A DNA stretch of 63,516 nt, counting the filler, from Dugesia japonica (lineage: Eukaryota), in assembly GCA_001938525.1 (NCBI GenBank). It is 5 parts of 5 records of this genome, joined end to end, with 100 filler letters (N's around TTAATTAATTAA, not from the genome) between each part and the next. Parts side by side here need not be neighbours in the genome. Positions count along the whole stretch, not along the records: positions 1 to 26,417 come from MQRL01563595.1; 4 more parts are not named here. One strand, given 5' to 3'. Position numbers and translations under genes: made by a program. This document shows, in pieces, positions 8,753 through 52,467 of this stretch; position 1 is the first letter of the stretch, and every line of letters starts with the position of its first letter. The notes under the pieces were generated by a model, which was not told the DNA's origin, did no database searches, and was given only the letters and a program-made list of their open reading frames with translations.

Positions 8753-8761
8753 AACGCCATC

Positions 8762-12965: not shown

Positions 12966-13182
12966 CAGAAGATTTTGAAAAAGTGACTAATTCAAACTAT
13001 TCCCTGCAAGACGAAGTTCAAAAGGCTATTCAAGAAGTATTAAACAAAAAGGCTTTTTTGCAAACAAGTCGCTCTTCAAATTCCATGAAACAGAATTTTG
13101 GAACATATAAAAGAACTAACAAGAATACAAACAAATTAAATAAAAATATTGAATTAAAACAATTAATGGAATATGATGGTCT

Positions 13183-14190
13183 ATTTGAAACTTGATGTTT
13201 TTCTTTTGGCTGATTTCTTTCAGCAATTTCAGGCTAAATCTTTAGAACATAATAGGTTAGAACCACTTAATTCCTGTGGTATTCCTGGAATGAGTGGGGC
13301 TTCTGCTTTTGATGACTTTAAATGAACTAACTGAGCTTTTGATCGCCAATGATATGTACACTTTCTTTGAATGTGGTATCAGAGGAGATCTTACTTTTGT
13401 AAATAAACATTATGTAGCTACAGATGATAATACTGAACTTTTGTATTTAGACATAAATAATTTGTATGGTTGAGCTTTAAGCCAATAGTTACCTTTTAAG
13501 AATTTTGAATGGATGAATAGTAACTTGGAAAAAATTCTTGTTGATTGTATGAATTAAGACTGAGATTCTCTGTCTTATGGTTATAGTGTTGAAGTTGATA
13601 TGATAATTCCTAACGATTTATATAACTATTTAAGTGATTTACATGTTGCTCCTGAACAACAAATTGTACCAGGTACAAAATTTAAAANATTACTACTTAC
13701 ACATCACCCAAAGAAAAACTATGTAAAACATTGGAGATTATTTCAATTGTATTTACAAATTGGGATTAAAGGGACTAAAATTCATAGGGCTGTAAAATTT
13801 GACCAAGATTACAATTTTAAGACTTATGTTGATGGAAACACTACATTAAGATCTGAAGGTAAAAATAAGTTAGACAAAAATTATTATAAACTACACAATA
13901 ATAGTCTTTAAGGTAAGACTGTTGAAAGTCTTAAGAAGAGGATGAATCTCCGTCTCTGTAATTCGACAAAGAAGATTGTAACCTACACCTCCAAACCGAG
14001 CTTTAGGAAAACTTTTAAAATCAATAAGGATCTGGTTGCTGTTCAACTTAATAAGGATGTTATTTGTTTGGATCGTCCAAGTTATATTGGACAATCTGCA
14101 CTTGACTTATTTATGCTTAGAATGTATTAACTTCAGTATGTTGACTTTGAAAAATTCCGAAAGGAAGAGAAATGTTGTATAAATATTGTA
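13183..14190 (+). pseudogene. Polinton/adintovirus-type protein-primed family B DNA polymerase fragment
   Basis: GIRGDLTFVNKHYV, LYLDINNLYG*ALSQ*LP, YYKLHNNSL*GKTVE, LDRPSYIGQSALDL; multiple stops. Confidence 0.9.
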
Positions 14191-14659
14191 TAAATAAAGC
14201 AAATTTGAGTCAATAGCTGTCATCTGCGCACAGAGATCTGAGTGCTAAAATCTGATTTTTGATATTTTTCACGACAAAACTTCATTTATTTCATTGTAGA
14301 TTAACTTTGATGATTTAAGGTTAACATATTTAGAATAAGCAAAATATTTTCTATCAAATGGAAATTGTATTGATTGAATTTCAAAAGGAAAATGCTTTTT
14401 CGAATAATGGTTTTTGTAAAATAATCTCCACCAAATTCTCTATCGATTAATCTTATAATCTCGACAAAAATCTTTTCCAAAACGTTTTCAAATTTGAATT
14501 GTTTACCTAAATTCTAAAATATTTTGATTATTTAAAAACATTCCCGTAAAAATTTTAACCCAAACAGACCAACACAAGTAAATTATTGCCGAAAATAACC
14601 CAAAAATCAGCGTGCACGAATTTTTTAAAATTAAAAAATTTCAATAATTCGGTAAACTA

Positions 14660-15592
14660 TTGTTAATAAGTAAGATCAGGAGCGCTTAATAACACGTATA
14701 CTTGATGGAGAATTAATAGAGGCATACGTGTAAACATTGAAGAAGTCAGACGGATATTAAGGAAGATTGCGATTAGCTTTTGAGAGCAAGAGAGACGCAA
14801 TAAAAGATTTTCAAAATCTTTTAAACAGTCGGCGTGGTGGTGAAAACTTTGGGGTGTTCTTAAAAGAGTGGAAGATTTGGTCAATAAATATTTAACAAAT
14901 GGAGAACTGACAAAAGAAAAATTCTTGTCAAAAATGCTACTAATTTGCGCAGATAGTAAAAAAGCAGAAGATGAGATAATCATTAAGAAATTGGAGAAAG
15001 TATAAGATATAAAAGAAACATTATCACTAGTTGAAAAAATAGAAAGAAAAAAACCAGTGTGTTNNNNNNNNNNNNNNNNNNNNNNNNNNNNNNNNNNNNN
15101 NNNNNNNNATTCTCAAGTGAAAGACTACACTTGCCACAGGAAAGGGAATGTAAGTAGAAATAGTCCACACAAGAAGCCACCAAAATGTTTTAGGTGTGAT
15201 AAGATTGATCACATCAAAAAGATGTGCGTGGAGATTGTATGTGGTAGCTATAAAACACCTGGTAACAGAGTAGAAGAATGCTATAGAAACGTCAACAAGT
15301 CAAAACTAAAAAAATGAAGACACAATTTTAAAAGCAGGCAGCGAATGAAAGATTGGAATAGGATAAATAAAAGTCTTCAACGACAATGAAAGTATGTAGA
15401 GATTTTCTGGGAACATAGTTTAAGAGAATACCCAAAATGCAGGGCCGTATCAGTGGAAGAGTTGGCCGGGCTTAGGGTTATTCCAAAGAAATGTCAATTT
15501 TATAGAGACTAAGTCAAATCTTTGGGACACGTTATCAGAAATGAAAGTGTCAAAACAGATCAAACCAAAATAGAAGCAATTAAGAACTTTAA
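14660..15592 (+). mobile_element. Gypsy gag remnant fused by deletion to the RT thumb
   Basis: Three zinc-knuckle-like motifs (TCHRKGN, CFRCDKIDHIKKMC, CGSYKTPGNRVEEC) resembling 8940-9120, then GLRVIPKKCQF...LGHVI...KTDQTKIEAIKNF. Confidence 0.8.
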
Positions 15593-16550
15593 TAATTTAT
15601 TAATATAAACACACTTTATCAAGAAAAAATTGTTAAAGATCATATAAACACACAGCTACTTTGAAACGTTGATATTTAAGTTAATATATTTAAGATAAAC
15701 TAGATATTCACTCATTAACTCACTCTATAACGCTTACACACAAGTACAAAAGTCAATAATAATTTGTATAAATGTGTTGAAATTAGCAAACTAAAATACC
15801 ATAACGATTAACTTTTATTTCTGATGAAGAAGTAAATCCGTTTAACGGTAACTTCTTGATGAACTACAAGACCGTTACTAAATGATGCAAGACAAATTAG
15901 TCGCCATGTTGTGTATAATGAAATAATTCAGCAAATAAATACTAACGCTTTATTGTATGAACATTAAAAATGACTACTCTTTTTTTTAATTCAAACTAAA
16001 AATAATTTTGAAAAATATTCTCAATTTTACATTGAAAATTAAAAATAAATTCAAAAATTAGGGGCACCACGGGCAACCTCAGAATAAACTAGTAAACTGA
16101 GAATAGATAAAAAGAAAATAAATTATCAAAAAAGAAACCTTATTATTTTGTTGATAAATTGCAGGTAAAAATTACTATTTGATAAAAAATCAGTAGTTGT
16201 GTTAGACTTTGATGGAAATCAGCAATACTTAAATATTGATATAAATCTGTTATGAATTATAAATTATAACTCAAAAGGACAACTTTAAATATAGAACTAT
16301 AAATGTATTTCTATTATATTTCTATGTTGTGATTTTATTATTCGTATCTCTAAAGTTTATAATTGTGACAAACAATTAAAAACAGCTTTGTCCATTGAGT
16401 TTACATTAAAAAAAACAAATTTAAATTAAACAAATTTTATTTAACAAATTTTATTTAACGAAAAATTTTCTTTATTTTTTACTTTCGTTCTAAATTAAAA
16501 GTTGATGACATTGAATAGTAGTTATTATTTGGATATATAGCTGATTGAAG

Positions 16551-19500
16551 TTAATAAAAGCCTGGCGAGTAGCTCGCAACAGAATTTATTTTTGGTGATG
16601 CTGGAGAATAGTTTGGAGAACTTGGAGAATAGTTTGNNNNNNNNNNNNNNNNNNNNNNNNNNNNNNNNNNNNNNNNNNNNNNNNNNNNNNNNNAACTTGG
16701 AGAATAGTTTGGAGAACTTGGAGAATAGTTTGGAGAACTTGGAGAATAGTTTGGAGAACTTGGAGAAAAATTGGGAGAACTTGGAGAATAGTTTGGTGAA
16801 CTTGGAACGTACCCATGACTAGTTGGAGAATATCCAGCACCAGTTGGAGAATATCCAGCACCAGTTGGAGAATATCCAGGACTAGTTGGAGAATATCCAG
16901 GACTAGTTGGAGAATATCCAGGACTAGTTGGAGAATATCCAGGACTAGTTAGAGAATATCCAGGACTAGTTAGAGAATGTCCAGGACTAGTTGGAGAATA
17001 TCCAGGACTAGTTGGAGAATATCCAGGACTAGTTGGAGAAAATCCAGGACTAGTTGGAGAAAATCCAGGACTAGTTGGAGAAAATCCAGGACTAGTTGGA
17101 GAATATCCAGGACTAGTTGGAGAATACCCAGGACTAGTTGGAGAATATCCAGGACTAGTTGGAGAATATCCAGGACTAGTTGGAGAATATCCAGGACTAG
17201 TTGGAGAATATCCAGGACTAGTTGGAGAATATCCAGGACTAGTTGGAGAATATCCAGGATTAGTTGGAGAATATCCAGGACTAGTTGAAGAATATCCAGG
17301 ACTAGTTGGACAATACCCAGGGCTAGTTGGTAAGCAACTTGCACTCACTGGGGAATAACCTGAATAACTTTGGGAACGTAGGCCTTGTATAACACTTCCT
17401 GGAGAATTAAATGAGTTGTAAATCGGACTTCTTGGGCTCAATAATGGACTAAACGCTATACCTGGACTTGGAGACATTCCCATTTCAGAAAACACACTAG
17501 GAGAAAATGCAGCTGCAGAATTATGAATATTTGGTGACATTGAATAACAAATTGGACTGAATTGTGAATATTGTGGAGAACTCGCATATATTGGACTATA
17601 TTCACCATTCATATAAACACTTTGAGCTATTCCACTCATTGTAGGAAAACTCTGCGCTTCCTCACATCTTTGAAAATCCATCAAAACATCAAAGCAACCG
17701 GTTCCCATTTTAGCAAGTTGACCTAACAAGATTGATTCAGATACACCTTTCATTACGTCAATTTCAGAATGAGCTCCCGCTTCTAATAAGATATCTACCG
17801 TCTCTTCAAATGTTGATCTTGAAAGCGCTCCAGTATCTTGCTTATTTATTCCATGTCTGTCTATAGACATCAAACCACCACTTTTTGTCATAACTTCACA
17901 TAATAGTGCCAAGTGACGATAGTTTACATAAGAACCATCAAATGAAAGAACATTATTCATTTCATATTCAATGGCATTTCTAGCTGCTTCAATGCCAAAA
18001 GTTTGAAATATTTCAGTAATATGATTACTTGTCGTATTAATTGGATCTACATCCCTCTCTGTTATTACTTTTGCCAAACACGAACCATCAGTTTCCAACT
18101 TCCATTCACCAACCTTTTTAAATTCGCCATTTTCGTCAATAACGCTTCTTAATTTAAAACCAGTATCGGGATTTAGAAGATACACTTTAGAAATCTGAGG
18201 AATTCCTTGCAAAGTCACCGAGTCAAGAATTGAATTTTCTAAACGTTCTAAAAATAGTTTTTCATTCGTAACTTCATCAATATCATTATATTCTTTATCT
18301 TCTTGTTTTCTTTTTACTCTTATTCTTAAAACTAATTCCAAATTATCATCAGGAATATGACAGGTAATATCATTTTTGAAATATTCAGAGATCTTTTCTG
18401 CTATTTGTGCTAAGCATAATTGTTTATCAATAATTTTCTTTCTATTTAACACAATTCGCAACATGTATGGTGAAATATTTGTTATGTCTTCATCGGATAA
18501 TTCATAATATGTTCTGACCCAATCTCTTTCTTTTTCTATCACCGATTCCATTGGATCGGGATCATAATAAATTTCTGTCATAAAAGTTAGTTTTCTCAAA
18601 GTCGTGTGTTCAAGTCTTGCACCAACTCTTTTCGCAAGTTCTGAATCGTTAGCCGCATCACCAAGAAGTCGAATGTTTAAAGATGGAGTTTTTGGATTTC
18701 TAGACACATTAATAATTTCCTTCAATCTAGGAACACCAAGTGTAACGTTTTTCGCAGATACACCGGCAAAATGAAATGTATTCAATGTCATTTGAGTAGC
18801 TGGTTCACCCAAACTTTCTGCAGCTAATGCACCGACCATTTCACCAGGTTGTACCAAAGCTTTAGAAAAGGCTCTAACAATTTCACCAATTACCCACTCA
18901 AAGGCACTAGAACTTAAACGATCTTTAAATATTATTTTTTTGACGCTTAATGAACTTCTAATAAGTATGCAAAATAATAGTTTTGCATTTCTATTAGCTT
19001 CTCTAGTTACTGGATCATCTCCTTTTACAACGCATAATGTGTCACAAAGACTGTTAACCGTATTAATTATTTCAATTGGATTTATATCCGTTTTGTTTAA
19101 AAAGTCTATTTTAAACTTTTTTTGAGCATTCCATATCAGCCTTTGAATGTTACATGGCAAAGCTATCTTTCCACCGGTTTCTTCTTTTAATATAGAACGA
19201 GCCTCATCTCTATCATTTTTTAGAGTTTGCCATTCCAATTCTAATGAAGCAATAGTATCGTTATTGTACAATATCTCTTTTACCCTTCTGTCTGTTAAAT
19301 AACATATCAATTTATTATGATCATTAAAATCAATTTTATATTTGTCTTTAAATTTTTCATTTGACAAATTATATGTCGGTAAATTTTGAAATTCGACAAA
19401 CGCCCCATCAAGACCGTCTTCGCCATATTGGGTTTGTAAAATTTGATCATTTTGATTTCGAACAGTTCCATCATATTTTACCATTGTTGACTCCATTGCC

Positions 19501-22123
19501 TTTATCAATCGACGTTGAATATATCCAGTTTCTGCAGTCTTAACAGCTGTATCGATAATACCTTCTCTTCCTCCCATTGCGTGAAAATAAAACTCAGTAG
19601 GAGTAAGTCCTGCTAAATAAGAATTTTCAACAAATCCTCTTGATTCTGGCCCATAATCATTTTTTAAAAAATGTGGCAATGTTCTTTGCTGGAAACCGAA
19701 TGGAATTCGCTTACCTTCAACATTCTGCTGACCAACACATGCAATGACTTGAGCAATATTAATTTTAGAACCCTTTGCTCCTGAATTAACCATTAAATTG
19801 AAACTGTTGTACTTTGAAACCGAAGACTGTGCATTGCCTCCAGTTTCATCTCTAGCCTTATTTAGTATTTGGTTTACTTTTTCTTCAAATGTTTGCATAA
19901 CCGATCTTCCAGGATTACATTTTAGATTTTTAGCATGTCCTTCACTAATTGTGTCATAGACTTTTTCTTTCGCATTTGCAATGCAATTCTTAATATTTAC
20001 TTTTATTTCGGGTGTGTATAAGCAATCCACTATTCCAATAGAATGGCCTACAATTTCGAGCCAATTGTTAACGACAATTTGAACATTATTAAAAAAGCTT
20101 CCAACTACATCAGAATTGTGCTCTAACGCAATTATATGTATTAATGAACCTGAACTACTTCCTAATGATTTTTTACAAAGAATTCCAGATAGTAGTTCTC
20201 CATCTTCTATCAGAACCTTAGTGTCATAATATGTTATATACTTGTAAGGTCCTAAATCCTCTTTATCTGAGTGGGTACTATGAGTTCTAGTACAATTTAA
20301 ATGCTTAGGTATAATCAATGAAAACAGTTGCTTTCCTGTCCACAAAGGTTTTGGTTTCATAATACTAGGTTTTGGCATTATTCCGTCCCAAGATGGTAAA
20401 AACATTAATAAACGCATCATTTCTGCTCTGTCAAGTGTAACATCACGAAATGTAAGCTTATTACACGCCGTTAAAGAATCTTGTACAATACTCATAACTG
20501 GTTTATTACTTTGCGGTGTTATAACCAATTTAGTAACTCTAGCTAAATTTGCTACTTCTGCTCTAGTTTCTTGGGATTGTGGCAAATGTAAATTCATTTC
20601 ATCACCATCAAAATCAGCATTATATGGGGCTGTTACAGAAAGATTCAAACGAAATGTGGAAAATGGCAATACTTTGACGCGATGACACATCATGGACATT
20701 TTATGTAATGTTGGCTGTCTATTAAAAATTACGTAATCATCATCAATAATGTGTCTTTCAACTATTTCGCCATAATTTAAATTAATAGATGAACAATCTG
20801 GATGACGTTTTAAATCAATTCTGTCACCGTTTTCTTTGATAATATACTTAGCTCCAGGATATACTTTTCCATTCTTTACTAGTGTTTGAAGAAAACTTTT
20901 ATTAAATGGTGTTACCACTTCTGGAAAAGTCAGATTTTGTGCAATTGATTGTGGAACTCCAACTTGATCTAAATTTAGATTTGGATCAGCCGTTATTACA
21001 GTTCTTGCTGTATAATCAGTACGCTTTCCCATCAAGTTACTTCGAACTCTACCACTTTTCCCTTTCAATCTCTGTTTTAATGATTTAAGAGGTCTTCCTG
21101 ATTTTTGGATTGCAACAGGTAGAAATGTACTTTCATTATCTAAAAGTGTTGCTACATGATATTGTAGAAGATTTTCTTTTTCCAGTAATACTGCTGATAT
21201 TACTCCTTTTATTTCTGAAGATTTTATATCTTCATTTATTTTTACAATTTCTGTAAGTTTATGTGTTAAATCATCATGAGCTTTGCCGCTGTGATTCATT
21301 ACAATAGCTGGTCGAACTGCCATCGGCGGGACTGCAAGAACTGATAAAATCATCGATTCTGGCCTGGAATGATTTGGGCTAAATCCCAATAATAGACAAT
21401 CGCTATCAGAAATTCTTTTAAATATTTCATGAACTTGTGTTGCTCGTAATATTTGCGTGTTTGGTTCATTATTTTCACTTTCAAATGTTGCTGAATAATC
21501 CAAACCATTTCGTTTATATTTTTTTGGTTGAATAAAATTACAGCCTTCTTTGAAATCATGATTATTATTATCATTATTGTCCACATTTTCTTTATTTTCC
21601 AAATCATCAGAATTTGATGAAGCGCAAATTTTAATTTTTTTACAGTGTTCGTGAATCAATTCAAATCTCAATTTTAAATTGTTTTCAGTTTTTTTAACTA
21701 TTTCCTTTATTTTATGATTTTCGGGATCAATTAATATTCTCGAACATTTAAAACAAACCGATCTTAAAACTTTAATAATTTTTTCCTTAAAACCAATATG
21801 AAAAACAGGTCTCGCTAAATTTATATGACCAAAATGTCCCGGACATTCTGAAACATTTGAAAAACATGTTTGACAAATGGAATACTTATCAACTGGACCC
21901 TGTCTAGGATCCATTAAACCATTTCTTTTAGGAATACCGTTTACAGCCTTTTCTGGATATATGATGCCTTGGGAATCAAGTACCGACAGTTTTGTCTAAA
22001 AGAAAATGTTAGTTTATGTAATAAATAGGAATAAAATCAAACTATTTCCGAAGAGCTTAACATTCCAAACTCGACTCTAGAAATAGTCTTAAGAGGTATA
22101 AGAGCAGAACTTTTGTCATCCAT
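16551..22123 (-). CDS. RPB1: DNA-directed RNA polymerase II largest subunit; exon 1 22123-22043 (27 aa), intron 22042-21996 (47 nt), exon 2 21995-16551; ~1841 aa, with an N gap in the CTD
   Basis: NADFDGDEMN active site, CQTC..CPGHFGH zinc site, bridge helix TAVKTAETGYIQRRL, trigger loop QMTLNTFH, heptad CTD. Exon 1 MDDKSSALIPLKTISRVEFGMLSSSEI joins in phase 0 through a GT...ACTAAC...TAG intron to TKLSVL...GLMDPRQ. Confidence 0.98.
16590..17340 (-). repeat. RPB1 CTD 21-bp coding tandem repeat
   Basis: Near-identical TATTCTCCAACTAGTCCTGGA units (about 25 G7 heptads) followed by TATTCTCCAAGTTCTCCAAAC units (N7 heptads). Confidence 0.95.
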
Positions 22124-22859
22124 TTAAAAAGTAGAAATGAAACAATAATAAACTATTTAATAAACGAATTTTCTATATTCAGTAATTTAGAAAATCACAC
22201 ATTTTTCTTTCAATAATTACTTTTTTTACAAATATTGGGAAAATAATTTAAAAATTGTTCTTAAATTTTTTTATAGATAATACGTATAGTTTTGTCTTTT
22301 ATTTTATTAACAAAAAAAACTATATTTTTTTAAGAAAAATTTTTAAATATCAATTAATTATTTGCTATAAAATTATTTTAAAAAAAGTTTTGTTTTTAAT
22401 AAATTAAAGAAATTAGAATTTTTCTTTATATCATTATGTTTGACTGGAAATTTTAAATCATTTTAAAATATTTAATTATTTTATTTGATGTGACGATGTC
22501 GAAAGCCTGATGAATTAATTAATGGAAATAATTATCATAACCTTAGATTGAACTTGGAAATCGGAGACGTATGCTTAAGAACTTTAGTCTTATAGGTGAA
22601 CTCAATCAATATGTTAAGAGCATGAAACTATTGCTGGTTCACCAACTATAACGTTGACAAAAACTCGATTAAGATTAAATGGTAAATGTTTTGAAAAAAA
22701 AATAAAATAATGACTACAATTTATTTAGTTATTTTCCAGACGTCATTTTAAAATATAATCTATTTCATGTTTCGACAGGTTAACTGCCATATTCAGTCAA
22801 TATTTTTTAATATATGTAAAAGAGCTCATATTGAAATTCTAATAAATATATGAATAGTC

Positions 22860-23285
22860 CAGTGGTGTATATTTGTATGTTTAAATAATCACAATTTAAA
22901 AATTGTGATTTTTTATTATACCTATAAAATTTTCAATAATTATTTTAAAAACCCAGTAGTGTATGTTTGTTGGTTTGTGCATAATGCTTAATATTATTCA
23001 ATAAATTTCAAAAATTGTGATTTTTTATTATAGGTTTAAACTTTGAATTATTATATCATACAGTGGTGTATGTTTGTTTCTTTAAAATTTTAAAATTACA
23101 AAAAATTGAAAAATAGCCCGGTGGTGTATGTTTGTGCGTGAGACTCAATATTATTTAAAAAATTTGAAAAGTTGTGATTTTTTATTATAGGTTTTCAAAA
23201 ATTTCAATTATTATATTAAAAAGCCAGCGGTGTATGTTTGTTTCTTATTATTTTAAAAATTTTTGAAGTTTAAAAAAATTGAATA
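22860..23285. repeat. Diverged tandem array with core motif CAGTGGTGTATGTTTGT
   Basis: Motif at 22860, 22954, 23061, 23119 and 23225; second motif TTGTGATTTTTTATTATA three times. Confidence 0.75.
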
Positions 23286-24142
23286 AAATTTATTCAGAAA
23301 ATGACCAAGAAAAGTATTTAAAAATGATTAACTTCAGTGATAATAATTTTAAAAATTTAAATGAAGAGTTGCAACGTTTCAATGAAAGTTATTGTTAAAA
23401 AGTACAAGAAAAATTTATGAAACCAGATAATTTTAAAAAATGAGAATAAAACCTATAAATTTTGAAAATAATGCTCAAAACCAAATTCATGATACAAATT
23501 TATCGATAGATTTGGATTTTTAAAAATTTTTTAAAACTTCAAGTTTACAGTAAATATGGAACTATATTTACTCAACTAAATATTCACTATTGAAAAAATT
23601 TTACTTTCTGAAAAATAGTTTGAAATCTATTTATTAAATTTAATTTTCTCACATTTTATTAAATAAAACTTTTCAAAAAAAATATTTTCTATCTTAGTAA
23701 TTACTCTTTAATTCATTTAAAAATGACTAAATAATGATATTTGTAATAATAAAATAGAAATATATATTATTAAAAGTTAAATTTCAATCTTTGAAAAAAG
23801 GAAGCGGATAATTATAAGTTAAAATGTAAAAAAGGAATAATTTGATAATACTAATTTAGAACTTAAAAATTGGATGTAAAAAAATCAGAATTTCAAATAA
23901 TTTTTATTTCTATATTAGTTTATTCCATGAACACTTATTTTGTTCAAATTATATTTACAAGTTCAAGTAGGAAACTATGGAAGCAACGCTGTTTGGATTC
24001 TTTCAAATTTTAACATTTATTTAATCCAGACATAATATTTTTAAATTTTAATTTACCAATCTCCCAAATTTTGGTTTTCAACAATTTGGTTCTCAATCAA
24101 TCGAGAAGGTTCTTCGTTTAAAAACCTACTTATACATAAATG

Positions 24143-24462
24143 CAGGGCCGATCGGAGGCCGTAGCAAACAGTGCGACCGCACAAGGTTCCTGTCGTCCCC
24201 GTTTTTAAATAAAATGTTATTAATAACTTATTTTACCTTTTGTTTTCGAAAACGTTACCATAAATAAATTTTTAATAATTTAAAGCATATAATTAATTAT
24301 ATTAATAAAATTTTTTCTAATATATGTATATAGTAAAACTAAAACAACCATTTTGATACTATTTATGACCATTTTTTAATTACTATTTCTTGCATGAAAT
24401 TTCTTTCAAGGCATCGCTAGGAAAATTTTCACTGTGTCTCACTTTTGTACAGGCCGGTCCTG
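24143..24462. mobile_element. hAT MITE (CAGGGCCG-type TIR), 320 bp
   Basis: TIRs CAGGGCCGATC / GGCCGGTCCTG; 8-bp TSD CATAAATG / AATAAATG (7/8). Confidence 0.8.
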
Positions 24463-24812
24463 AATAAATGTATACATCTACTTGTAGTAACGAAAGGCAA
24501 AAGCAAAGTATGTAACATTATAACTTTGCCAATTATTACTTGAGTTGATTTAATATGAGGCAAAGAAATTACATTAGTGACATCATTAATGAAAATAATA
24601 TGGGCTATATATATATATATATATATATATAAATATATATAAGTAATGGGGTATTAACGTTTTCTTTTCAAGTTGATACTACCGTACCTCATGAAAAATG
24701 AAATATGTTAATGTAATATTTTAAATGAAATATGTTAATGAAATATTTTAAAATCCAACATGATTCAATGCAACATGAAACATGAAATATTTTTAAATTT
24801 ATTCTATAGAAA

Positions 24813-25436
24813 ATGAGTGATCAGAAAAAAGTTGTTCCACAAGAAAAAGTAATGAGTGAATTAACTTTAGTAACATTAATAAAATCAATACAAGATTTTG
24901 ATGCATCAGAAGAGTTGAATATTAATGAATTAAAAGAATATTTAAAAAATGATTTAACAAGAGAAACAGCAGAAGGTTATTTAAATTATCTTAATGATTT
25001 ATATGCTAAATTAGAAGAATTAAATTTAGTAGAAGAAAATAAAAAATTATTTAAAAATTTAATAACCACCATTGCCACAAAATATACAGAAAGTGATAGT
25101 CGTGGTTTATTACTTGAATTATTTAATAAAAGAATTGAAGATTATTTAAAAATTATTAAACAACAACAAGTAGATTTTCAAAAAGAAAGAGATCAACATA
25201 ATGCTGCTTTAATTAAATTAAAAGAAAAACCTAAACAAATTAAAGTTAAAGAAGTTGTATTTACAGTTCATCCTTTAGATATCACCAAGAAGAAGAGAAA
25301 TGTAACTGTTAAACGTTTTACTGAATTATATGATAATTTAAATCTAAGCAATCTTTCATTAGATAAATCAAAACGTGTTCAAGCTCAAGTAATTACTGGA
25401 TTTGATAAAGTATATGCTAAAAAAGAACCTAAATAA
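24813..25436 (+). CDS. Intact 207-aa orphan helical/coiled-coil protein, probably Polinton/adintovirus-encoded
   Basis: Uninterrupted ORF in very AT-rich DNA, AAAATG start context, co-directional with a capsid-like gene 460 bp downstream. Confidence 0.65.
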   Translation: MSDQKKVVPQEKVMSELTLVTLIKSIQDFDASEELNINELKEYLKNDLTRETAEGYLNYLNDLYAKLEELNLVEENKKLFKNLITTIATKYTESDSRGLLLELFNKRIEDYLKIIKQQQVDFQKERDQHNAALIKLKEKPKQIKVKEVVFTVHPLDITKKKRNVTVKRFTELYDNLNLSNLSLDKSKRVQAQVITGFDKVYAKKEPK

Positions 25437-25437
25437 A

Positions 25438-25800
25438 ATGGATTCAGTTTTAAATAAAATGTTAAGTGAATATAATTTTAAAGATAACTCTATGCAAGAT
25501 TTTTGTAAGGCTTATAATATAAATCAAAGAACTGTTAAAAAATATTTAAAGATGTGGAACATAGAATATAGTGTTAGATCTTGGAACCCATGTAGAAATT
25601 TACAAAGAAATTTACATGGTAGTTTTATTTCTGCAATTGAAAGATTTGAAAAAAAAAAAGTTACTAATGTTAAAAAAGTTACTGATGTTAAAATTCAAAG
25701 TGTTAGATTTGAAAATAAAAAAGTTACTGATGTTAGATGTGATTATGAAAAATTATTTATCGAAATGAATAAAGCAAAAAAGTATACAGTAATGAATTGA
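25438..25800 (+). CDS. Intact ~120-aa orphan protein with HTH-like N-terminus
   Basis: ATG lies 1 nt after the upstream stop (TAAAATG); SMQDFCKAYNINQRTVKKYLKMW resembles a helix-turn-helix; internal KKVT(N/D)V repeats. Confidence 0.55.
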   Translation: MDSVLNKMLSEYNFKDNSMQDFCKAYNINQRTVKKYLKMWNIEYSVRSWNPCRNLQRNLHGSFISAIERFEKKKVTNVKKVTDVKIQSVRFENKKVTDVRCDYEKLFIEMNKAKKYTVMN

Positions 25801-25897
25801 GATGAATTGATTTGAAATGAGATGAAATGTTTTAGCAATGTTTTAGCAATGATAANATAAAAAAAAATATATACCATTAAATTTTACATCTAATAAA

Positions 25898-26417
25898 ATG
25901 ATTANAATGTTAGATTTAGATAATAACATTCAATTTTCACATGTAGCAATTAAAAATGACACATTAGTAATATCACCATCAGCAGGAACATGAAGTAAAT
26001 TAAATGCAAGTGGTGACATAGTATTTCAATCTTTACAATCTACAAATCCACTTGATATCTGTAATTCATTATTATATTTTAGAATTACTATTAAAGTTAC
26101 TATAAAAGATGTAAAATATAAAATAACATTAGAGAATAACTTCTTTCCAAGTTTATTTAATTCATTAAGATTATTTTTAGGTTCTTCTGAAATTGAATCA
26201 ATAAATGATCCAGGTGTAATAAGTACAATGTTAAATTTTATATTTTCAACTGAAACAATTAAAAAGGAATATGGACAATTATCAGGTTGAATTCCAGATA
26301 TTGATGATGGAGATTCAAAAAATAATGGTTATCAAATTAGAACTAAACTTTATAAATCAGGTAAATTTGAAGGTTACTTTCCATTAAAAAACTTATTTGG
26401 TTTTATGCAAAATTATA
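25898..26417 (+). pseudogene. Polinton/adintovirus double-jelly-roll major capsid protein, N-terminal part (cut by gap; two in-frame TGA)
   Basis: Manual translation: ...LNASGDIVF...LENNFFPSLFNSLRLFLGSSEIESINDPGVISTMLNFI...LSG*IPD...NNGYQIR...FEGYFPLKNLFGFMQNY. This fits the NN..LF..EIE..PG..STM..GW..N.G..R..PL..LFGF..Y pattern I recall for Polinton capsid proteins. Not in the ORF track because of TGA at 25991 and 26288. Confidence 0.75.
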
Positions 26418-26517
26418 NNNNNNNNNNNNNNNNNNNNNNNNNNNNNNNNNNNNNNNNNNNNTTAATTAATTAANNNNNNNNNNNNNNNNNNNNNNNNNNN
26501 NNNNNNNNNNNNNNNNN
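26418..26517. other. Artificial scaffold spacer (44 N + TTAATTAATTAA + 44 N)
   Basis: Identical 100-bp structure also at 36832-36931, 45581-45680 and 54077-54176; the 12-mer gives stops in all six frames. Confidence 0.92.
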
Positions 26518-26614
26518 ATCTTCTCAATTAATTTATTTCTTAAATTCTAAAATTTAAAAATATTCTCGTAAAATTTCATTTTAATCTACTTCCTACTACT
26601 TTCATTTTAAACCC

Positions 26615-27130
26615 CAACATTATCATAACAGCATGGGCCATCCAGGATTTATAAAGACAAAAGAATTAATTCAGAATTTAATTTGACTGGAAGAATTTGA
26701 GTAAAGAGAGGAAAACCTTTATTGAAAAATGCATTCCATGCATAAATCGAAAAAATGGTATAATTTTAAATCACATCTTTGATAAACATTTTGTAGTTAA
26801 TGAGGCATTTGGAAAAATATGCATTGATATCACTGAACTATTACCAAAGTTAAAGGATACAGATATATTTTAGGAATAATATGTCTTCTTTAGATATACT
26901 ATGTTAATTCTCCTTATAGGAATCAAATCAAAATTAGTAACAAATCAATTATTTAGAAAATGGATCACTATCCTTGGAATACCAAAGAATTTTGTAAAGT
27001 TCTGAAAATAAATCAAACCTTTGCAAGCCCATACTATCATCAAGGAAATGAGTTGGTAGAAAGAAATTTTAGAACTTAGAAAGATATAATTTATGTATCT
27101 AGCTTGAAAATTCTAACAAATTTGGTAGAT
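26615..27130 (+). mobile_element. Gypsy integrase fragment (HHCC zinc finger and core), degraded
   Basis: HYHNSMGHPG...EKCIPC; FGKICIDIT; ASPYYHQGNELVERNFRT. Confidence 0.8.
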
Positions 27131-27469
27131 GCCGGTCTCTATCATTTTTGTTTAATTTAAAGAAGATAAAACGATTAGAATTATTTTGAATACTGTTTTT
27201 GTCAAGGATATATTATGTCAGTTAGAAGTTACAGTTATTACGTTTACCACTAGAAAAAAAATTCAAATTTTCTGATTTCTTTCATTTACAATATCATTAA
27301 AGATGACTATTTTTTCTTATTAACTGATAATAATAATCACAAAATAATAACAGTTACAATACCATCTTGACACATTAAATAATAATACGCTTTTCAAAAA
27401 TTTATTACAAAACATTTTTTGGAATATTTAAACAGCAATATTATCTTATTGTTACTCTCCTTTTATTTA

Positions 27470-30025
27470 AGAACTGTGACACTCTTTCAGCCATTCAATT
27501 CATCTGTATTTCCTTTCATTTGGATACTCTAGTTCAACTTGATGATCCGTCGGGAAATCAAAGATCTTTACAGGACCTTCATATACATTGCCATCCTTTC
27601 GTTTCTTTTGTGGATCTATTTTTGCCAAAAGTTCCTGTCCCACTTCAAAAAATCTGTGCACCTTCTTCTTAACATCTTGACCTTTCATTCTTTCCGCTGA
27701 AATCTCAAGATTACTCCGTACCTTTGACAATACTTGTTCTTGATCCAATTTTATGTACGGATCTTTGCCAAGAATATTTACGAGGACTGTCTAAAAAGTT
27801 TTTAGCCCGACCAATTTCTAAACATATTTTTTATTTTTTGTCAACAGTTTATTAAAATTCATTCTTTATTTAGTATTAATAAATCGATTATTATATTTTT
27901 ATCATTTAAGTAATAGTATTATTTTTTTTTAGTAAATGACTTCGGATGAATTGAAAAATTTTGAAAAAGTTTTTTTTAAGGATTAAGCCCAAAAGAAATT
28001 TATGAAGACATGAGCAGATTATTAAATAAAACATGCCCGTCATATGCAACAGTGAAAAATTGGGTATCATCATTTGAGAGAGGCAAAACAAGCAACCAAT
28101 ATCAGCCAAGGTTCGGTCGACCAATTTCTGCATCAACTCAGGAGAACATTGAAAAGGTACACGAAATGATTCTTGAAAATCGTCGAATTTCAATCAGAAT
28201 TATTGCTGAGACCTTAAAACTATGCAAAGAACGTGTTGGTAAAATCATTCACGAAGATTTGGATATGAATAAGCTTTCTGCAAAATAGATCCCTAAATGC
28301 ATGAATTCTGATCAGAAGCAAAGACGAGTGCAGAGTTCAAAGGTGATTCTTTCATATTTGGCAAGGGATAAAAGTCAATCTATTAATCAAATTTTTACCG
28401 TCGATGAAACATGGTTACATTCCTTTGATCCTGAAACCAAGCAACAATCCATGGATTGGAAGCATTCCAGATCGCCCCAAACCAAAAACTTCCAAAGATA
28501 AAAGTCTGCAGGAAAAGTCTTAGCATTGTTTTCTGGGATTGCAAAGGCATTGTGATGATAGACTTTATAGAAAAAGGCTCAACAATAAATTCTGATTATT
28601 ATTCATTTTTATTGGTCAAAGTTAAAGAAAAATTTAAACAAAAACGACCTGAAAAGTTAAGAAATGGTATTCAATTTCTGCAGGACAGTGAACCTGAACA
28701 TATTGTCTTACAGACATTGAATATAATTCAAGATATTGGTTTCCAAGTTTTTTTTTGTAAAAATCTGATTTATTTTTACAAATTTTTTATAAAAGTACTT
28801 AACGGTTTGAATAAAAGTACTTATAGATTTGAATATCCCTGTAAACTAATCACCTAGCTAAATGGATCGATTATTACAACCATATATCGATTACTGCTTC
28901 TGCTTTCCTTCATATGCGCAATATCTATCACGATTTGATCCATAGGGTTCATAACCTTTCTTGGTATTAAATATTCGGCTGTCTTTAATTATAGTGTCTT
29001 CCTTCTCATATACAACTCACATTTTTTTATAATCGACTTTGTATCTGTTACCACGTTTATCCAAAAGAATTGACTACCAATATAATTTATAGTTTTCTTA
29101 ACACATAGGGTCCAATTTCTTTATGCATATGTACCACAAACCTCTCGACAAGCTTATGCGGAATGCTTATCTTCCGTTTATTTTCACTTTATATTAATAA
29201 AAACATTTCTTTCAACAGTATACTATCTAATTTATGGAAATACACAGAATGTTTTATCAACTTTGGTACTATCAAAGAAGGGTTCATAATAAAATTTTTA
29301 ATCGCTTCCAAAACAGAATCCTCAGCTTGAGCGGAACGATACGTTTCAATATTAAATTCTTCAAACAAAATTGCATTTAAAAATCTTACTCTGTTCTTCT
29401 CTTTTATCCCTTCTTCGTGTTCACTTTGACATTGAGAGCAATAGCTCAATAATATTCTGGATAATCCGTCTGCATTGTTATGGTTTTCACCCTTCCAATA
29501 TTTTAGATCAAAATCAGCGCCAGATAATTCACTTAACCATGTATGAAATTGTGGACTTATTGATTTTTTGTGGACTTCAAAATTGTAAGTGCTTTGTGAT
29601 CTGTACGGATATCAAATTTCTTACCGTATAAGTATTGCTTGAAGTAATATATAGCCAGTAACGCCTTCCGTGTCACACAATGACTTTTCTCATGAGCACT
29701 TAAAAGCCTTGATCCATTTGCGATAACCTTTTCACATCCATCTTGTACCTGACTAAGAACAGCACCAATACCGCTAAAACATACATCTGTGTCTAAAATA
29801 AAATAATCATATTTGTTTGGGAATGCCAATACTGGAGTATTTTATAAAGAATGTTTGAGTTTCTGGAAACTTTCTTGACACTCTTTATTTCATTATATGT
29901 CTTTCACATGTCCATTAGTAGCCTCGTATAATGGTTGGGCAATTTGAGCAAAGTTAAAAACAAATTTAGTGTAGTAATTTGCCAAACTAAGAAATGACCG
30001 TAATTGTTTGGTGCACTTTGGAATT
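27470..30025 (-). mobile_element. Gypsy pol fragment (RT thumb, RNase H, integrase) interrupted by a mariner
   Basis: FILDTDVCFSGIGAVLSQ..IRTDHKAL (29557-29829); integrase C-term YEGP motif (27500-27748). Confidence 0.85.
27781..28750 (+). mobile_element. Mariner transposon, 3'-truncated, transposase pseudogene ~27990-28750
   Basis: TA then TIR-like CGAGGACTGTCTAAAAAGT; PSYATVKNW, GRP, KLSAK*IP (WVP), TVDETWLHSFDPETKQQS, VFWDCKG; no YSPDL or right TIR seen. Confidence 0.92.
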
Positions 30026-31275
30026 TAAGTACCTAAAAGAGAAACTTTGATAATTGATAATAATAATTTGATAATTGATAATAAATATAAATTTAAAATA
30101 AAGTCAAAACACTACAAATCATCGTAAATAATGCAAAATTATCTTTGTAGATTAGTTAAAAAACACATGAAAACTTTGAATAATTAAGTTTAGATGAAAT
30201 AATTCATTTGAACATAAAATATTTTACACATGACATATATAGAGGTTGTTAACAATTTTGATGAAAAATTTGAGTTATTTTGAAATTTTAGGGGTTTGAT
30301 TCCAAACCTTTTGTTGATAGTGAGAATAAGAAGCCGATGTGTGACCAATGGAATTTCGATGTGACCAAATCATTTGATTGGAAATTCATTCTTGAATGTT
30401 ATTTGATGAGTTATTTTATTGGTGATTATTTGTAACAGTCAAATTAGGGGGGGTGCTTGAAGCAACACTCGATGGTACAAAAATTTCTGAAAAATTTTTT
30501 AAAAGTCAACTTGTATGTGTGTGTTTGGAACACTATACAAACGAGTTTAGTTTTATGTATAATTTGCAGATTTACCAAAGAATTAAAATTTATGATCTTG
30601 TGTAATCTTTAAAGGAAATTTGTGATTGAAATTCAAATTTATTTTGATTTCAAGAAGATTTGTTTTGATTCAATTCAGATAGTAGTAATATTTATTTATT
30701 GATACTATGAATCAAATCCACAGAGACTCACCTTATCTAAACTCAGTCAGATAATAAATTGCTTTATTCGGGATTACAGCTCAAGTGTCGTGTAAACCCT
30801 AACAATATTGACTTTCATTAACTCTGAATTTGTAAGTTTTCATATTGTCCATTCATCGATAGTTTCTAACTTTGAAAACATTTCTTCAAGTAAAGTTTTT
30901 ATAATAAAGGAATGAATAATTTTTAGTTTTATCTTTTCAATGTCTTAATTATCATTTAAAAGGTCAATTTTGTGAACATTAAGCAGATTTCGTTGATTTA
31001 TTAAATTGAGAATATAAAGTTCTTTGTAAGCATAAAATGCGAATTGCATAATTTTGATCTTTCTATTTTAAATATATCCAAGCAACAGATTTCTTATTTT
31101 GTGACATTGGGTTTGCCATTAAACAAAAACGTCTTTAAAAATATAACTAATATAAATTATATTGAATTCAATTAAAAGAAAAGCATCACTAATTGAAATT
31201 TTAAAATATTGAATAAATTAAAGAAATATTAAAGAAATATTTTGAAGCTTGCCAATTTTGTTTACCAGGCTCTTA

Positions 31276-33989: not shown

Positions 33990-34818
33990 TGATGCTACTC
34001 TCTTAGCCTTCGTTGATTCTTTTTCATTAAGGAAAATATAATATTTTGATCTCAGAAAAACTCATTTCTTGTATTTCTTGCCATTATTCTCATCCTTGAA
34101 TTTACTTACTATCGAGTTCCAGTTGTTATTGTAAAGTGAATGATTTTATCTTTATTTTGATGTGTTCAAAAGATTATCTCGCACCGTTAATCTTAGTAAT
34201 TTTTCTATCTTAATGTTTTTAATTTCTACGAAAAAGCTATTTGTATCTCCAGCTACTATGTTTATTGTGCAACTCTCTTTGTGATATTTTTTGTGTCCAA
34301 TGTACTGCAACTAGTACATTCTTAGCTTTGACAGGTCCAACACTGCTTGAACAATGTAACTAGGTTTGTGCAAACAAATTGTACCTTTATTCAGTTAAAC
34401 TGCAATTATATATTCATCTTTCTTCATTTTTTTCCTGAAAGTTGACTTTGATGAATAAGTCATCAGCTTTTTCACTGAACTACAAAATTCTAAAGTTGAA
34501 CTTCGTCTTAATTTTTTTCAACTGATTATCCGTAAGGGTGGTTATTCATTGTAATTTTTATCTAAATCCGATTGACTTTGCGATCTCAACTAAGTATTAC
34601 TATCAATATATTTTTTACAAATTATCTTGAGTAAATTTTACAGCTCTGAAGATTTTTGAAATCTGAACACTTAATTGTAAGTATAATTGTAATAGCATTC
34701 AGTGTACTACATAGTTTATTTTTGAACCTTGGGGCTTTGATGTTTAGCTGTTACAGGAAAGTCATTTAAATAAGGGTAAAGTTTCTTAGGTATTTCAATA
34801 TCTACTTCTAATACATAT
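33990..34818 (-). pseudogene. Polinton-type pPolB C-terminal fragment
   Basis: YVLEVDIEIP, LHKPSYIVQAVLDLSKLRMY, IVAGDTNSFFVE, VFLRSKYY..KAKRV; homologous to 13183-14190 and 50250-52467. Confidence 0.85.
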
Positions 34819-34819
34819 T

Positions 34820-36831
34820 TCTTCCTATCAGACCACGTAAGTCGGAAAATACGGAGTTAAATATATCGCATAGTTACCCATTACGATCACAACAAGCTAT
34901 GATGATACTCGGAAAAGCATCAATCCCAGTATTTGTATTGAGTCAGCTAAGCCAGCAAGTTAAAGCATTGGGTACCATAACATTATATCCTATAATTCCA
35001 CGGGGTATACAGACACCAGTAGCAGAAAACTGTTGTGCTCACTTCTTTCGAGTGATATACCCAATCTCACCAACGCTAATGGAGGCCAGTTGCCTTGCAT
35101 GCATATGGAAAATGCAATCAATTTTAAAATCAGCATTACGGGAAGTCGCTGGTCTTAGACTTTGGTTGTTACAACAAGACGAACTCAGTAGAAAACGATG
35201 TAAGAAAATGCATGACAAGCTGACAGTTTAAGCACCATTGGAGCAAGACGAAGTGCACACCCTTTGCGAACGTTATGTCAGCATTTATAACGAAACTCTC
35301 ACTCGATCTATTGAAAATTTCCATACGATATTAATAGTATGGGATTGGTTGGTATTATGGTCTCAACCAGATGACCTTCCGCTGAGTCTGAAGAAAATGG
35401 GGAAGGGGAACTAACGGAAAAGGATGTAAATTCGGAACTGAAAACAGACATACAGCCGAAAGACGAGGAAAGGACAGAAACAGAGTTGCAGAGAATAACG
35501 AGGTTATTAAAATATGGCGCCTTAAAATATGCAGACAAACAAAGAAAAGAAAGGAAAGTGAAAGATAGCCTGACTTCAAGTCAAAATTTTCATGCCAAAA
35601 TCGACAACGAAAACACGGCCACTGTAAATTCTGCACTAGCCAAGGAACTAAATCGTTCAGATAAACTAGTGATGCCTAAAATAGTTGAGGCCCCAAATCC
35701 TACTCATCCGTCTCAGGCTCAAACAACATTATCTATGATTAATGATAAATCAGTCATTATATCACAAGAAATTAAAACTGTATCTTTTGGTTTAGATAAT
35801 CGAATGCGTGGACCACTGGCAATTGAGGCTATGAATGCTACTTCATACTATACAATCACATGCCAGGGGAGTCGGAAAGAAAGTTGTAATCATATTACCC
35901 ATATAACCTGTCCGCTGTAAGCACTTCAATTGGAAGAAAATTGTTTGCAATGTATCAAGCAAACACAAATGATATTAAAAAATGCACTAAAGGCTATTTA
36001 CGAGCAAAGAGCATGGTTATTCACACCAGAAAATTGGTTCATGAAAGAATGTGATGGATCCCGAATTAAAATACCGATTCAAGCATCAAGTCGTCAATCC
36101 GTCATAAAAAAGTTATGTATGCCATGCACAGATATTTTTAGCAAAGAATTACTAACATCCATTCATGTATTTCATCATCATTGGTATAATGGAACTGAAT
36201 AAGGGTGTATGAACCTTTGGAGATCCAATTGCCATGGTTAATGATAGAGCCATCTACTCGAAGAAAATACTAGTTAAAATAGATGGTAAAATTGGAGTTA
36301 AAAACAGATAAACTGACCGCCAGAGCGTCAGAGCCAAACAATTTCAAGCCAATAACCAGCCAAAAGGTACAAAAGTTAGCGAGGTTAATGGAAGAATCAT
36401 TCAAGGACCAATGGAGTAAAATGAAAAAAAGAAGGACAACAATGGTCCAGTATGACATTTGGAAAATTGAGAGAAATGAAAACGACCATAATAATTGATA
36501 AGATATAACAAACAAAGGAAGCAAAACAAGAAAAGGAGGTACTTCAAGAAAATAAGAACTTAATTACGATAGGAAAAATAATTAAAGTAGTTTTGTTGGT
36601 ATGAACAGTAATTAACACAAGTTGGGATTATGGCATACTAGGTTGGTTAACAATGAAAATTATCAAAAATATAGGAAGAGGGTACCCAACATCGATTATA
36701 ATATACGGACTCACGGGAATAATCTTACTCTGGTTAGCCTTACCGGCACTAGCAACGCAACAAGTACAGAACCTCAACCAAAATAGAATTCCTAGTATCC
36801 AAGGTATATTGATTACCATACTAACAGCCAT
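34820..36831 (+). pseudogene. Unidentified decayed long reading frame (Cys/His-rich middle, hydrophobic C-terminal segments)
   Basis: Five ORF-track pieces (34899, 35486, 35930, 36283, 36653) join through scattered stops and about three frameshifts; GC clearly higher than flanks. Confidence 0.6.
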
Positions 36832-43782: not shown

Positions 43783-43957
43783 AAGGGTTAAGACAGTAAT
43801 TTACAAATTGGAAAGCACGGGCTTCGGCGAAAAAAGGCGTGAAATTTTTAATTTAAATGTAATTCGAAAATGTAATTCTAGATAAAAAAATAAATACGAT
43901 AAACAAATTCGACCTATTAATATTAAATATAACGTAAAAATATAACCCGTATATATA
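43783..43957. repeat. ~175-bp direct repeat, copy 1 (copy 2 at 44315-44490)
   Basis: Both copies run AAGGGTTAAGAC..AAATTGGAAAGCAC..GGCTTCGGCGAAA..GGCGTGAAATTT..CTATTAATATTAAATATAACGT..CGTATATATA; roughly 85% identical by eye. Confidence 0.92.
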
Positions 43958-50249: not shown

Positions 50250-52467
50250 TAAGTTGCTTTATATTCAATGAAATTGGTAAACCACTACACAAATGAGACT
50301 AAATATATTGAATTTATAGGCAATGAATGTGTTTTCGAATTTTTAAAAGAAGTGGAGAATATTACTTATAATGTAGTATGTCTTTACTATTTGGAACATG
50401 GGAATAAGAAAGTGATAGTAACTCCTGCACAAGAAATTGAATTTCTGCGACTAGCATATGTTATTTATGTATAAAATCAATAGTTCAATCAGTTTGTCAN
50501 NNNNNNNNNNNNNNNNNNNNNNNNNNNNNNNNNNNNNNNNNNNNNNNNNNNNNNNNNNNNNNNNNNNNNNNNNNNNNNNNNNNNNCATAATCTCAAAGAA
50601 TATGATCTACATCCTACTCTCAACTATAGACTCAGTAGATTTTCAAATTAGGCAATTAAATGTATACCTACAACCAAAGAGAAATTTCTCTCTCATGGTT
50701 AATCAAAAGAAATCAGCAACCATCAGATGTATTGATTATTATCAATTTATCAGCTAATGGTTAGATGTAGCTGCAAAATCAATAAAAGCAACTCCGTTAA
50801 CAACAAAGGAGTTTAATGATAGCCGGATAATAACATCAAAGAATATATTTCCATATAATTTTCCCACCAGGTTGGAAATATTAGAAGAAACAACAACCAT
50901 GCCATCGAGATGGAATGGAGTGAGTGAAGAATCATACACGAAAGCATTGGAAATGTGTGAAATTATCAGATGTAATAACTTGTTGGATTATATGAAAGTA
51001 TATTTAAAGTTGAATGTCTTTTTGTTGGCTGACTTTTTTTAACAATTTCGACAAAATTCGTTAAAAAATTATAGATTAGAACGATTGAATTTCTTTGGTA
51101 TCCCAGGGATGAGTTGGGCATCTGCCTGATGACACTTGTTGAGCCTATACAATTATTAACAGATAATGACATATTCACATTTTTTGAAGTAGGAATCAGA
51201 GGAGGAATCACTTTTGTCAATAAATATCATGTTAAATCTGATGAAAATACAGGGCTTTTGTATATTGATAAAAATAATTTGTATGGGTGGGCATTAAGTC
51301 AAAAGTTACCAAATAAAGATTTTGTGTGGATACATTCAGGGTTGAATGAAATATTAGAAGATTGTAGAAGAATGGAATGGGATTCGTTGACATATGGATA
51401 TGTATTAGAGGTGAATATATTAATTCCCAATGAGTTACATAATTAGTTGAGTGATCTATCGGTAGCAGCTGAACATCCAAACCCTCCTGATAGTAAAGGG
51501 AAGAAATTACTCTTAACAAATTACCCGAAGAAGAATTATGTAGTTTACTGGAGGCTGCTGCCGATGTACTTGTATTTAGGACATATATACAAGTCAGGCT
51601 AATATATTAATATATGTACTAATATACTAATATACTATATATTAGTCAGGCTAATATATTTAGCAAATACAGAGATATGAACACAGAGCTAAGATCACAC
51701 CGTAAAACCNAATTGGAGAAGAACTACTACAAGCTATTAAATTATAGTCTATATGAGAAAAGTGTAGAAAATTTAAAGAAAAGAATTAACCTGAGGATTT
51801 GTAATTCTGCAGAAAAGTTGATTACTTACTCTTCAAAAAAGTTTTAGAAGTACAATAAAAATGTTCAACTCAACAAAGAGGTTATATGTTTGGATCGACC
51901 CAGCTACATTGGACAAACTGTACTTGATCTGAGTAAATTAAGAATGCATCAGCTCCAATACATTGAGGGTGAAAAGTGTCGAAGAGATGAGAAATGTGTG
52001 ATAAATATAGTAGCTGGTGATACGGATAGTTTCTTTTTAGAGGTTAATGATATTAAACTGGACAAATTTTTGTAGTTGATCGTAAGAGACAGATTATTGG
52101 ACACATCGAACTATAGCAAAAGAAACCCTCTTTACAACATGGATCTGAATTTGGTAGTTGGTAAGTTTAAAGATGAAAGTAAAGGTGAAAGATATATAGA
52201 ATGGATATTCCTGAGGCCAAATTTTTATAGTCTACTCAAGGAAAATCTAGCATGAAAGATACAGACATAACACATCAGTCATATCTTGATTGCTACAATG
52301 AAAATAAGAGATTGTTAGTTAATAAATTTATAATAAGGACTAAAAATCATCAGTTTTATAGTTTCATGAGTTCAAAATTAGCTCTTACAAATAATGACGA
52401 CAAAAGAGTGTGGATATATAAGAACACAAGCAAACCATATGGACACCACACATTACACACCACATAG
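50250..52467 (+). pseudogene. Polinton/adintovirus pPolB, longest fragment (exonuclease to C-terminus), degraded
   Basis: HNLKEYDLH (Exo II), IFPYNF, GIRGGITFVN, YIDKNNLYGWALSQKLP, YYKLLNYSLY, IVAGDTDSFF, LDTSNY, GKFKDE, LTNNDDKR..KPYGH. Confidence 0.93.

Follow-up and report, generated by a model that had tools for sequence, protein, structure and literature searches.

The names Polinton, Maverick and adintovirus are treated as synonyms in the openly accessible part of 10.64898/2026.06.19.733378. As described in the accessible text of PMC10748475, Polintons carry terminal inverted repeats of 100-1500 bp and have a target-site duplication of 5-8 bp, and 96% of vertebrate Maverick loci are decayed according to the available sections of PMC8097293. 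A link between Polintons and mitochondrial linear plasmids has also been proposed (PMC11071308, accessible part). Fossils of this kind are widespread in animals, and a decayed Polinton end is by itself ordinary. The cluster of three reading frames described here is probably such an end, namely the left end of a young, lightly decayed endogenous Polinton (Maverick/adintovirus, Polintoviricetes), in whose capsid gene two in-frame TGA codons would represent early nonsense decay. It stands out through the pattern of these TGA codons and through the family of its first gene (ORF1), which is compact and unnamed, adjoins the capsid gene and is a candidate core or host-interaction protein.

Genomic setting of the locus

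The whole stretch of DNA that was analysed (the window; 63,516 nucleotides) consists of five scaffolds chained by four N44-TTAATTAATTAA-N44 spacers, and the cluster fills the final 1.8 kb of the first scaffold. Nothing past positions 26418-26517 is part of the element, because these positions are a spacer that separates unrelated contigs. Toward the other side, the region 16694-25855 contains no N, and the cluster is joined gaplessly to a host gene for the largest subunit of RNA polymerase II (RPB1; 16551..22123, minus strand), which flanks the element and lies outside it. Two ambiguous bases are present at 25856 and 25905.

RPB1 has one 47-nt intron (21996-22042) and ends in TAA; its frame contains TGG eight times but never TGA, and its best PDB matches are chains of 1970-1984 aa, which score above yeast-type chains and which, by length and motif, we take to be of the animal type. 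Considering these matches together with the lack of in-frame TGA and the TAA stop, the host is of animal type and uses the standard code; its genome is AT-rich and full of gypsy and mariner debris. The RPB1 intron carries a CTAAC branch-site-like word and the tail of the protein is a long YSPTSPG repeat; together with the single short intron, these features suggest an intron-poor, fast-evolving animal. Upstream of RPB1, at 22830-23290, a repeat unit that measures about 50-150 nt and has a CAGTGGTGTATGTTTG-like core is present in four to five diverged versions. Rfam gave no matches in 22000-26417, and ARAGORN detected no tRNA genes in the window.

Several other features were observed in the window. 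Decayed gypsy-type copies with reverse transcriptase, RNase H, integrase and gag zinc-knuckle parts lie at 5400-12300, 14600-15600, 26600-27800 and 29100-30050 and served as a control set in the analysis of stop codons below. A decayed mariner-type transposase (Pfam HTH_48) is present at 27980-28860 (plus strand), a degenerate array of direct and inverted repeat copies at 38450-39240, and part of a gene for ribosomal protein S2/S5 (Pfam Ribosomal_S5_C) at 43783-44504 (plus strand), with a 190-nt duplication nearby. A Cys-rich coding stretch at 34812-36175 (plus strand), which contains two diverged tandem copies (35034-35324 and 35885-36175), adjoins the polymerase-like copy at 34 kb described below, and the two frames neighbouring this stretch gave no Pfam match. 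A Pfam match to Endotoxin_N was dismissed as a sub-threshold chance match.

On the left side, host DNA appears to give way to the element at a (TA)18 microsatellite (24606..24641, no strand assigned), which marks the start of the cluster 2.5 kb from RPB1 and is the apparent insertion site or, possibly, an assembly misjoin. It is followed by a leader 5' of ORF1 (24642..24812, plus strand) with a 27-nt tandem duplication (24696-24752) and short repeats of the ATGAAA type (24768-24787), which may be considered a candidate terminal repeat or promoter region. Polintons follow an AG terminus rule, and after the (TA)n tract the sequence starts near AG and then runs into short repeats; the right end of the element is missing. 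Likewise, the other Polinton core genes and a target-site duplication are absent from the contig, which ends at 26417, and a crude six-frame motif scan gave no match to Walker A, rve or adenain. A second copy of the cluster, of the capsid gene or of a member of the ORF1 family was not detected elsewhere in the window.

A compact cluster of three reading frames

The arrangement first described for this cluster was reproduced: three co-directional frames (ORF1, 24813-25436; ORF2, 25438-25800; ORF3, from 25898) follow the (TA)n tract, ORF2 begins 1 nt after ORF1, and each of the three starts in the context AAAATG. Since AAA precedes only 165 of 2064 ATG triplets in the window (20 of 160 locally), this common start context is unlikely to be due to chance (approximately 0.0005-0.002 by a post hoc estimate). 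Together with the lack of an obvious Shine-Dalgarno sequence upstream, it suggests cytosolic translation. The frames are continuous and intronless, and they show a strong codon-position bias, with GC1 of 0.40 and 0.31 and GC3 of 0.07 and 0.08 for ORF1 and ORF3, respectively; GC3 across the cluster is 0.07-0.12, versus 0.19 in the host RPB1 gene. Short tandem repeats (AATGA units and an 11-nt duplication; 25791..25851, plus strand) extend from the end of ORF2 to the region preceding ORF3 and resemble the ORF1 leader in make-up.

ORF3 (25898..26417, plus strand) comprises 173 of about 415-430 codons, that is, the first 40% of the gene, and is truncated where the contig stops (26417). Its identification as a Polinton/adintovirus-type double jelly-roll (DJR) major capsid gene, judged from sequence and structural models, is well supported. 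It is not intact, however: besides the truncation, which like the lesions had been overlooked in the first description, its frame is interrupted by TGA at 25991 and at 26288 and contains an N at 25905, and because of these three positions it had been missed by the ORF track. When X was placed at both TGA codons and at the N (P0001), no frameshift was found over the 173 codons, and 13 of 566 longer candidate proteins were recognised as full-length relatives (415-432 aa, E-values down to 1e-49), sharing 38-55% identity over 97-98% of the fragment. All 13 carry the PF21738 domain, and the four that were rescanned lie far above the Pfam cut-off; the ORF3 fragment alone scores 17 bits against PF21738 (E 0.0035), under the cut-off of 27. 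The resemblance to capsid proteins that had been noticed in the translation was thus confirmed. At the sequence level, neither the fragment nor the capsid alignment matched any PDB entry. In scans that reach close relatives only, none of 99 and 243 pattern matches in GTDB were confirmed as prokaryotic relatives, and the plasmid and phage sets gave no match.

An AlphaFold model of the ORF3 fragment was poor (pLDDT 44.9), and although its three best structural matches are all of DJR type, their Z scores are just 2.2-2.8. For this reason, evidence for the fold was drawn from the full-length relative P0002. Its model (pLDDT 70.9) matches the solved DJR capsids of iridovirus, mavirus, Sputnik and PBCV-1 (TM 0.51-0.57, E about 1e-11) as well as adintovirus/MELD capsid models, which is the fold that had been expected. 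In the ESM Atlas, the cluster that fits P0002 best represents a DJR protein of eukaryotic type (score 0.98), and the commonest known taxa in its DJR clusters are Preplasmiviricota, arthropods and nematodes.

ORF1 (24813..25436, plus strand) is open, encodes 207 aa and contains no Trp codon. Its product has an acidic N-terminal half and a basic C-terminal tail (19 K+R versus 8 D+E), with a coiled coil in the middle that bears the conserved QKER motif. ORF1 can no longer be called an orphan, as 19 relatives with the common coiled-coil motif were found at E<=0.001 among 1.84 billion representatives (23-49% identity), 14 of which are 204-221 aa long; they belong to no named family, and no Pfam family is matched by more than one of the 20 members. 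ORF1 itself is divergent, keeping 16 of 25 conserved columns versus 13-21 of 21-25 in other members. The ESM Atlas provided no usable match for ORF1, and enterotoxin A2 helices, which appeared as a match of the family, were rejected as a sub-threshold chance match. We also observed that ORF1 stops approximately 8-10 residues before most full-length relatives, just where ORF2 begins (25400-25460). ORF1 would most likely be a coiled-coil virion core or scaffold protein, dimeric and binding DNA with its basic tail. Its tie to Polintons is suggested by adjacency and common codon bias at this single locus.

ORF2 (25438..25800, plus strand) encodes a basic protein of 120 aa (25 K+R, 13 D+E) and contains two TGG codons, internal duplications of 18-63 nt and a terminal TGA that lies inside a repeat, the next TAA being at 25858. 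Residues 9-58 give weak, sub-threshold helix-turn-helix matches. Apart from a weak match of ORF2 to a homing-endonuclease C-terminus (E 0.0011), NCBIfam and PHROGs provided no significant match. A word-based search of low sensitivity detected no relatives among proteins of 66-210 aa, no real match was found in the PDB, and ORF2 shows no likeness to the ORF1 profile. It is a probable small helix-turn-helix DNA-binding regulator. The proposal that ORF1 and ORF2 are undescribed core or regulatory proteins is plausible on these inferred grounds.

Decay state and the distribution of TGA codons

The cluster had been described as young and as the structural module of a virion-forming virus. The former holds in part. 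ORF1 and ORF2 are open, the codon bias is strong, and ORF3 departs at 3 of 40 columns in which nine relatives do not vary, one of the three departures being a stop (the set was de-replicated by dropping five near-identical sequences and one fragment); tested likewise, seven relatives depart at 0-2 of 40-42 columns and the others at 6 of 46 and 19 of 59. The few departures and the lack of frameshifts indicate a young copy, but the capsid gene carries two stops. The latter description finds no support here: the host nucleus reads TGA as stop and the capsid gene, broken twice under the standard code, is unable to make its protein; furthermore, the contig lacks genes for the ATPase, protease, penton, integrase and polymerase. 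Intact Mavericks are defined by stop-free core ORFs in the accessible text of PMC8097293, and the two TGA codons place this capsid gene outside that definition.

The positions of the two TGA codons were then compared with the relatives. The TGA at 26288 strikes the only conserved Trp column of ORF3, which is Trp in 14 of 15 relatives (the fifteenth, a fragment, breaks off out of frame at this point), while the TGA at 25991 falls in a mostly hydrophobic column (I in 11, and M, F, V and N). Over 500 codons there is no TAA, no TAG and no frameshift. TGA accounts for 13-18% of the nonsense paths in ORF3 under AT-biased rates and for 28-34% without AT bias, and no change is seen at any of the eight TGG/CCA sites in ORF3 that are conserved and out of frame. 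Under decay, this exact pattern would have a chance no higher than 1-3 x 10^-4, a value from a crude post hoc model that is meaningful only against a rival.

Three decayed sequences in the window, which by motifs A, B and C we take to be family-B polymerase-like, show a related pattern. Their identity is based on these motifs because Pfam, PHROGs and the PDB gave no match; they share 64-65% DNA identity where aligned, are probably of Polinton type, and are physically unlinked to the cluster. One lies on the same scaffold (13173..14190, plus strand) and has two TGA codons, at 13471 and 13561, both of which stand opposite TGG in the copy at 51 kb. The second, on another contig (34023..34817, minus strand), has TGA codons at 34064 and 34701 that face TGG in the other copies, and the third (50992..52243, plus strand), also on another contig, has six TGG and no TGA in its aligned part.

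In 989 aligned codons of these fossils with 17 stops, 4 of 4 TGA codons face TGG in another copy, compared with 0 of 10 in the gypsy control (1605 codons, 24 stops; Fisher p 0.001; 0.0005-0.03 in a random-path model), although these are small numbers from alignment blocks picked by eye (9 for polymerase, 21 for gypsy). Counted by site, TGA occurs at 4 of 10 Trp-facing sites in the polymerase-like copies and at 0 of 17 in gypsy (p 0.012), whereas of 29 fossil sites with the same trinucleotide out of frame, 1 is changed (p 0.011), and no Trp-facing site carries TAG. Taken together, the capsid and polymerase-like pieces have five TGA codons at Trp columns, against nine TGG in the polymerase-like copies and two in ORF2. 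These counts (8 of 8 sites intact in ORF3, 1 of 29 changed in the fossils) support neither hypermutation from G to A in general nor a hot spot at TGG/CCA, but Gly-facing fossil sites comprise 6 GA versus 2 AG among 38, so that the rate at Trp sites (4/10) is to be compared with 6/38 (p 0.18), and there may be a mild GG-to-GA lean in the fossils. In addition, TGA at non-Trp positions makes up 0 of 13 stops in the polymerase-like fossils versus 10 of 24 in gypsy, and this lack is explained neither by decay nor by a reading of TGA as sense.

Competing explanations and comparison with known systems

We consider it probable that a Polinton would have inserted at the (TA)n tract upstream of RPB1, its remainder here being cut off by the contig end. 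Judging from Polinton biology, its ancestor would have formed icosahedral particles and its integrase would have provided entry into the germ line, and the two capsid TGA codons would then have arisen by early nonsense decay in a standard-code nucleus. Such plain decay is favoured by the exclusive use of TGG in RPB1, by the TGG codons of ORF2 and of the polymerase copy at 51 kb, and by the search among proteins of similar length, in which neither of the two matches among 62 candidates is cut by a stop at the Trp column. However, it accounts poorly for the lesions that are seen: TGA makes up both stops, one of them is at a conserved Trp, and the bias recurs in the fossils. Because TGA faces Trp in ORF3 and in 4 of 4 cases in the fossils, it is possible, though unproven and in our view unlikely, that the cluster came from a Polinton lineage that read TGA as sense (Trp) and was intact when it entered the assembly. 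The hydrophobic column at 25991, the contrast with gypsy, the nearly unchanged out-of-frame sites and the lack of TAG at Trp-facing sites agree with this alternative. In ORF3, one column that is always Arg has AGA and one that is always Lys has AAA, which would indicate the pattern of NCBI table 4 if TGA is sense; the mitochondrial tables 5 and 9 were rejected for the element on account of the AGA. The genes would, again with rather low probability, have been translated in the mitochondrion, in a UGA-reassigned protist or earlier host, or via virus-induced read-through, and the nuclear copies would have been dead on arrival. Against a sense reading stand the few, hand-picked alignment blocks, the TGG codons of ORF2 and of the 51-kb copy, the similar lean at Gly-facing sites, the lack of non-Trp TGA in the fossils, which are unlinked to the cluster and whose polymerase identity lacks a library match, the cytosolic look of the AAAATG starts and the absence of tRNA genes in the window. 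No precedent for a Polinton with reassigned TGA was found in the openly accessible part of the literature; the term 'genetic code' is absent from the accessible text of PMC8502044, 10.64898/2026.06.19.733378 and 10.64898/2026.10.13.758929, and in that of PMC12220804 it refers to hosts.

The remaining explanations concern the assembly and the nature of the two upstream genes. It is improbable that a viral contig from a free virus or a co-sequenced organism was joined at the (TA)18 tract, or that base-call errors near a low-coverage contig end made the stops. The start of the cluster at a microsatellite, the opening of another contig in the window with (TA)n (45681), the ambiguous bases at 25856 and 25905, the contig end inside ORF3 and the GC3 below that of RPB1 are consistent with such an artefact, but the sequence is gapless from RPB1 to ORF2, the decayed polymerase-like copies show that such elements reside in the genome, and a preference for TGA at Trp columns, seen at four separate places, is not expected of random errors. 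For ORF1 alone, a decidedly improbable alternative to a core protein is a viral UBAN-type decoy, that is, a NEMO/ABIN-like coiled coil that would bind linear ubiquitin and damp host NF-kB-type signalling. The best PDB matches of the ORF1-family profiles are indeed TNIP1/ABIN-1 chains (E 0.004 and 0.007). DFxxER is the conserved ubiquitin-binding motif of UBAN domains, its Asp being essential for ubiquitin binding; the motif conserved in the ORF1 family aligns on this stretch, and ORF1 itself has it exactly. Since the Asp is kept in 3 of 15 members, however, the match to the TNIP1 UBAN coiled coil is a weak lead only. The E-values are weak, fall on a coiled coil and concern one protein, no NEMO or optineurin chain appears among the 10 and 12 matches at E<=10, none of the 20 members has a UBAN-type Pfam match, and a literature search turned up no evident viral UBAN mimic. 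We give very little credence to the idea that ORF1 and ORF2 belong to the host, or are viral genes that it has domesticated, beside a capsid relic; the two frames are open and ORF3 is not, but they are intronless, lie 1 nt apart and share start context and low GC3 with ORF3, and a family with 19 representatives in 1.84 billion and no Pfam entry is unlike a conserved host gene.

If Polinton copies in this genome carry TGA specifically at Trp, the code of a eukaryotic DNA virus would differ from the standard code in which the nuclear genes and retrotransposons of its host are read, and a DJR DNA virus would be translated in mitochondria, via a UGA-reassigned host or by forcing read-through, leaving recognisable nuclear fossils. 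Such a finding would bear on the site of Polinton expression and on the proposed link with mitochondrial linear plasmids, and gene callers that assume the standard code would hide such viruses.

As a probable Polinton end in early decay, the locus resembles Polintons/Mavericks (adintoviruses) in its DJR capsid gene of about 420 codons (PF21738), compact intronless ORFs, animal-type host and decayed polymerase-like copies in the same genome. It differs from them in that only 1.8 kb are left, the capsid gene contains in-frame TGA and would lie 1.3 kb inside the presumed end, with two unnamed genes ahead of it, and the closest database relatives are just 55% identical. ORF1 is conserved and adjoins the capsid gene like the adintovirus 'Adintoc' proteins in the accessible part of PMC8502044; this likeness to Adintoc and to Polinton PZ/PW is by description, and the sequence set of that source may include the ORF1 family. 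In what is left of the element, ORF1 and ORF2 have no Pfam match to phospholipase A2 or gasdermin, the hallmark genes being PLA2X in Alpha and GasderminX/Cupiennin in Beta adintoviruses. ORF1 is also similar to the UBAN coiled coils of TNIP1/ABIN-1 and NEMO in its DFxxER-like stretch within a coiled coil, but the score is weak, the Asp is poorly kept in the family and the remaining part of ORF1 is unrelated. Finally, the capsid relative P0002 shares its fold with virophage and NCLDV capsids (mavirus 6g45, Sputnik 3j26, PBCV-1 Vp54 and SGIV 8hif; TM 0.51-0.57), from which it is set apart by an identity of about 10% and the absence of PDB matches at the sequence level.
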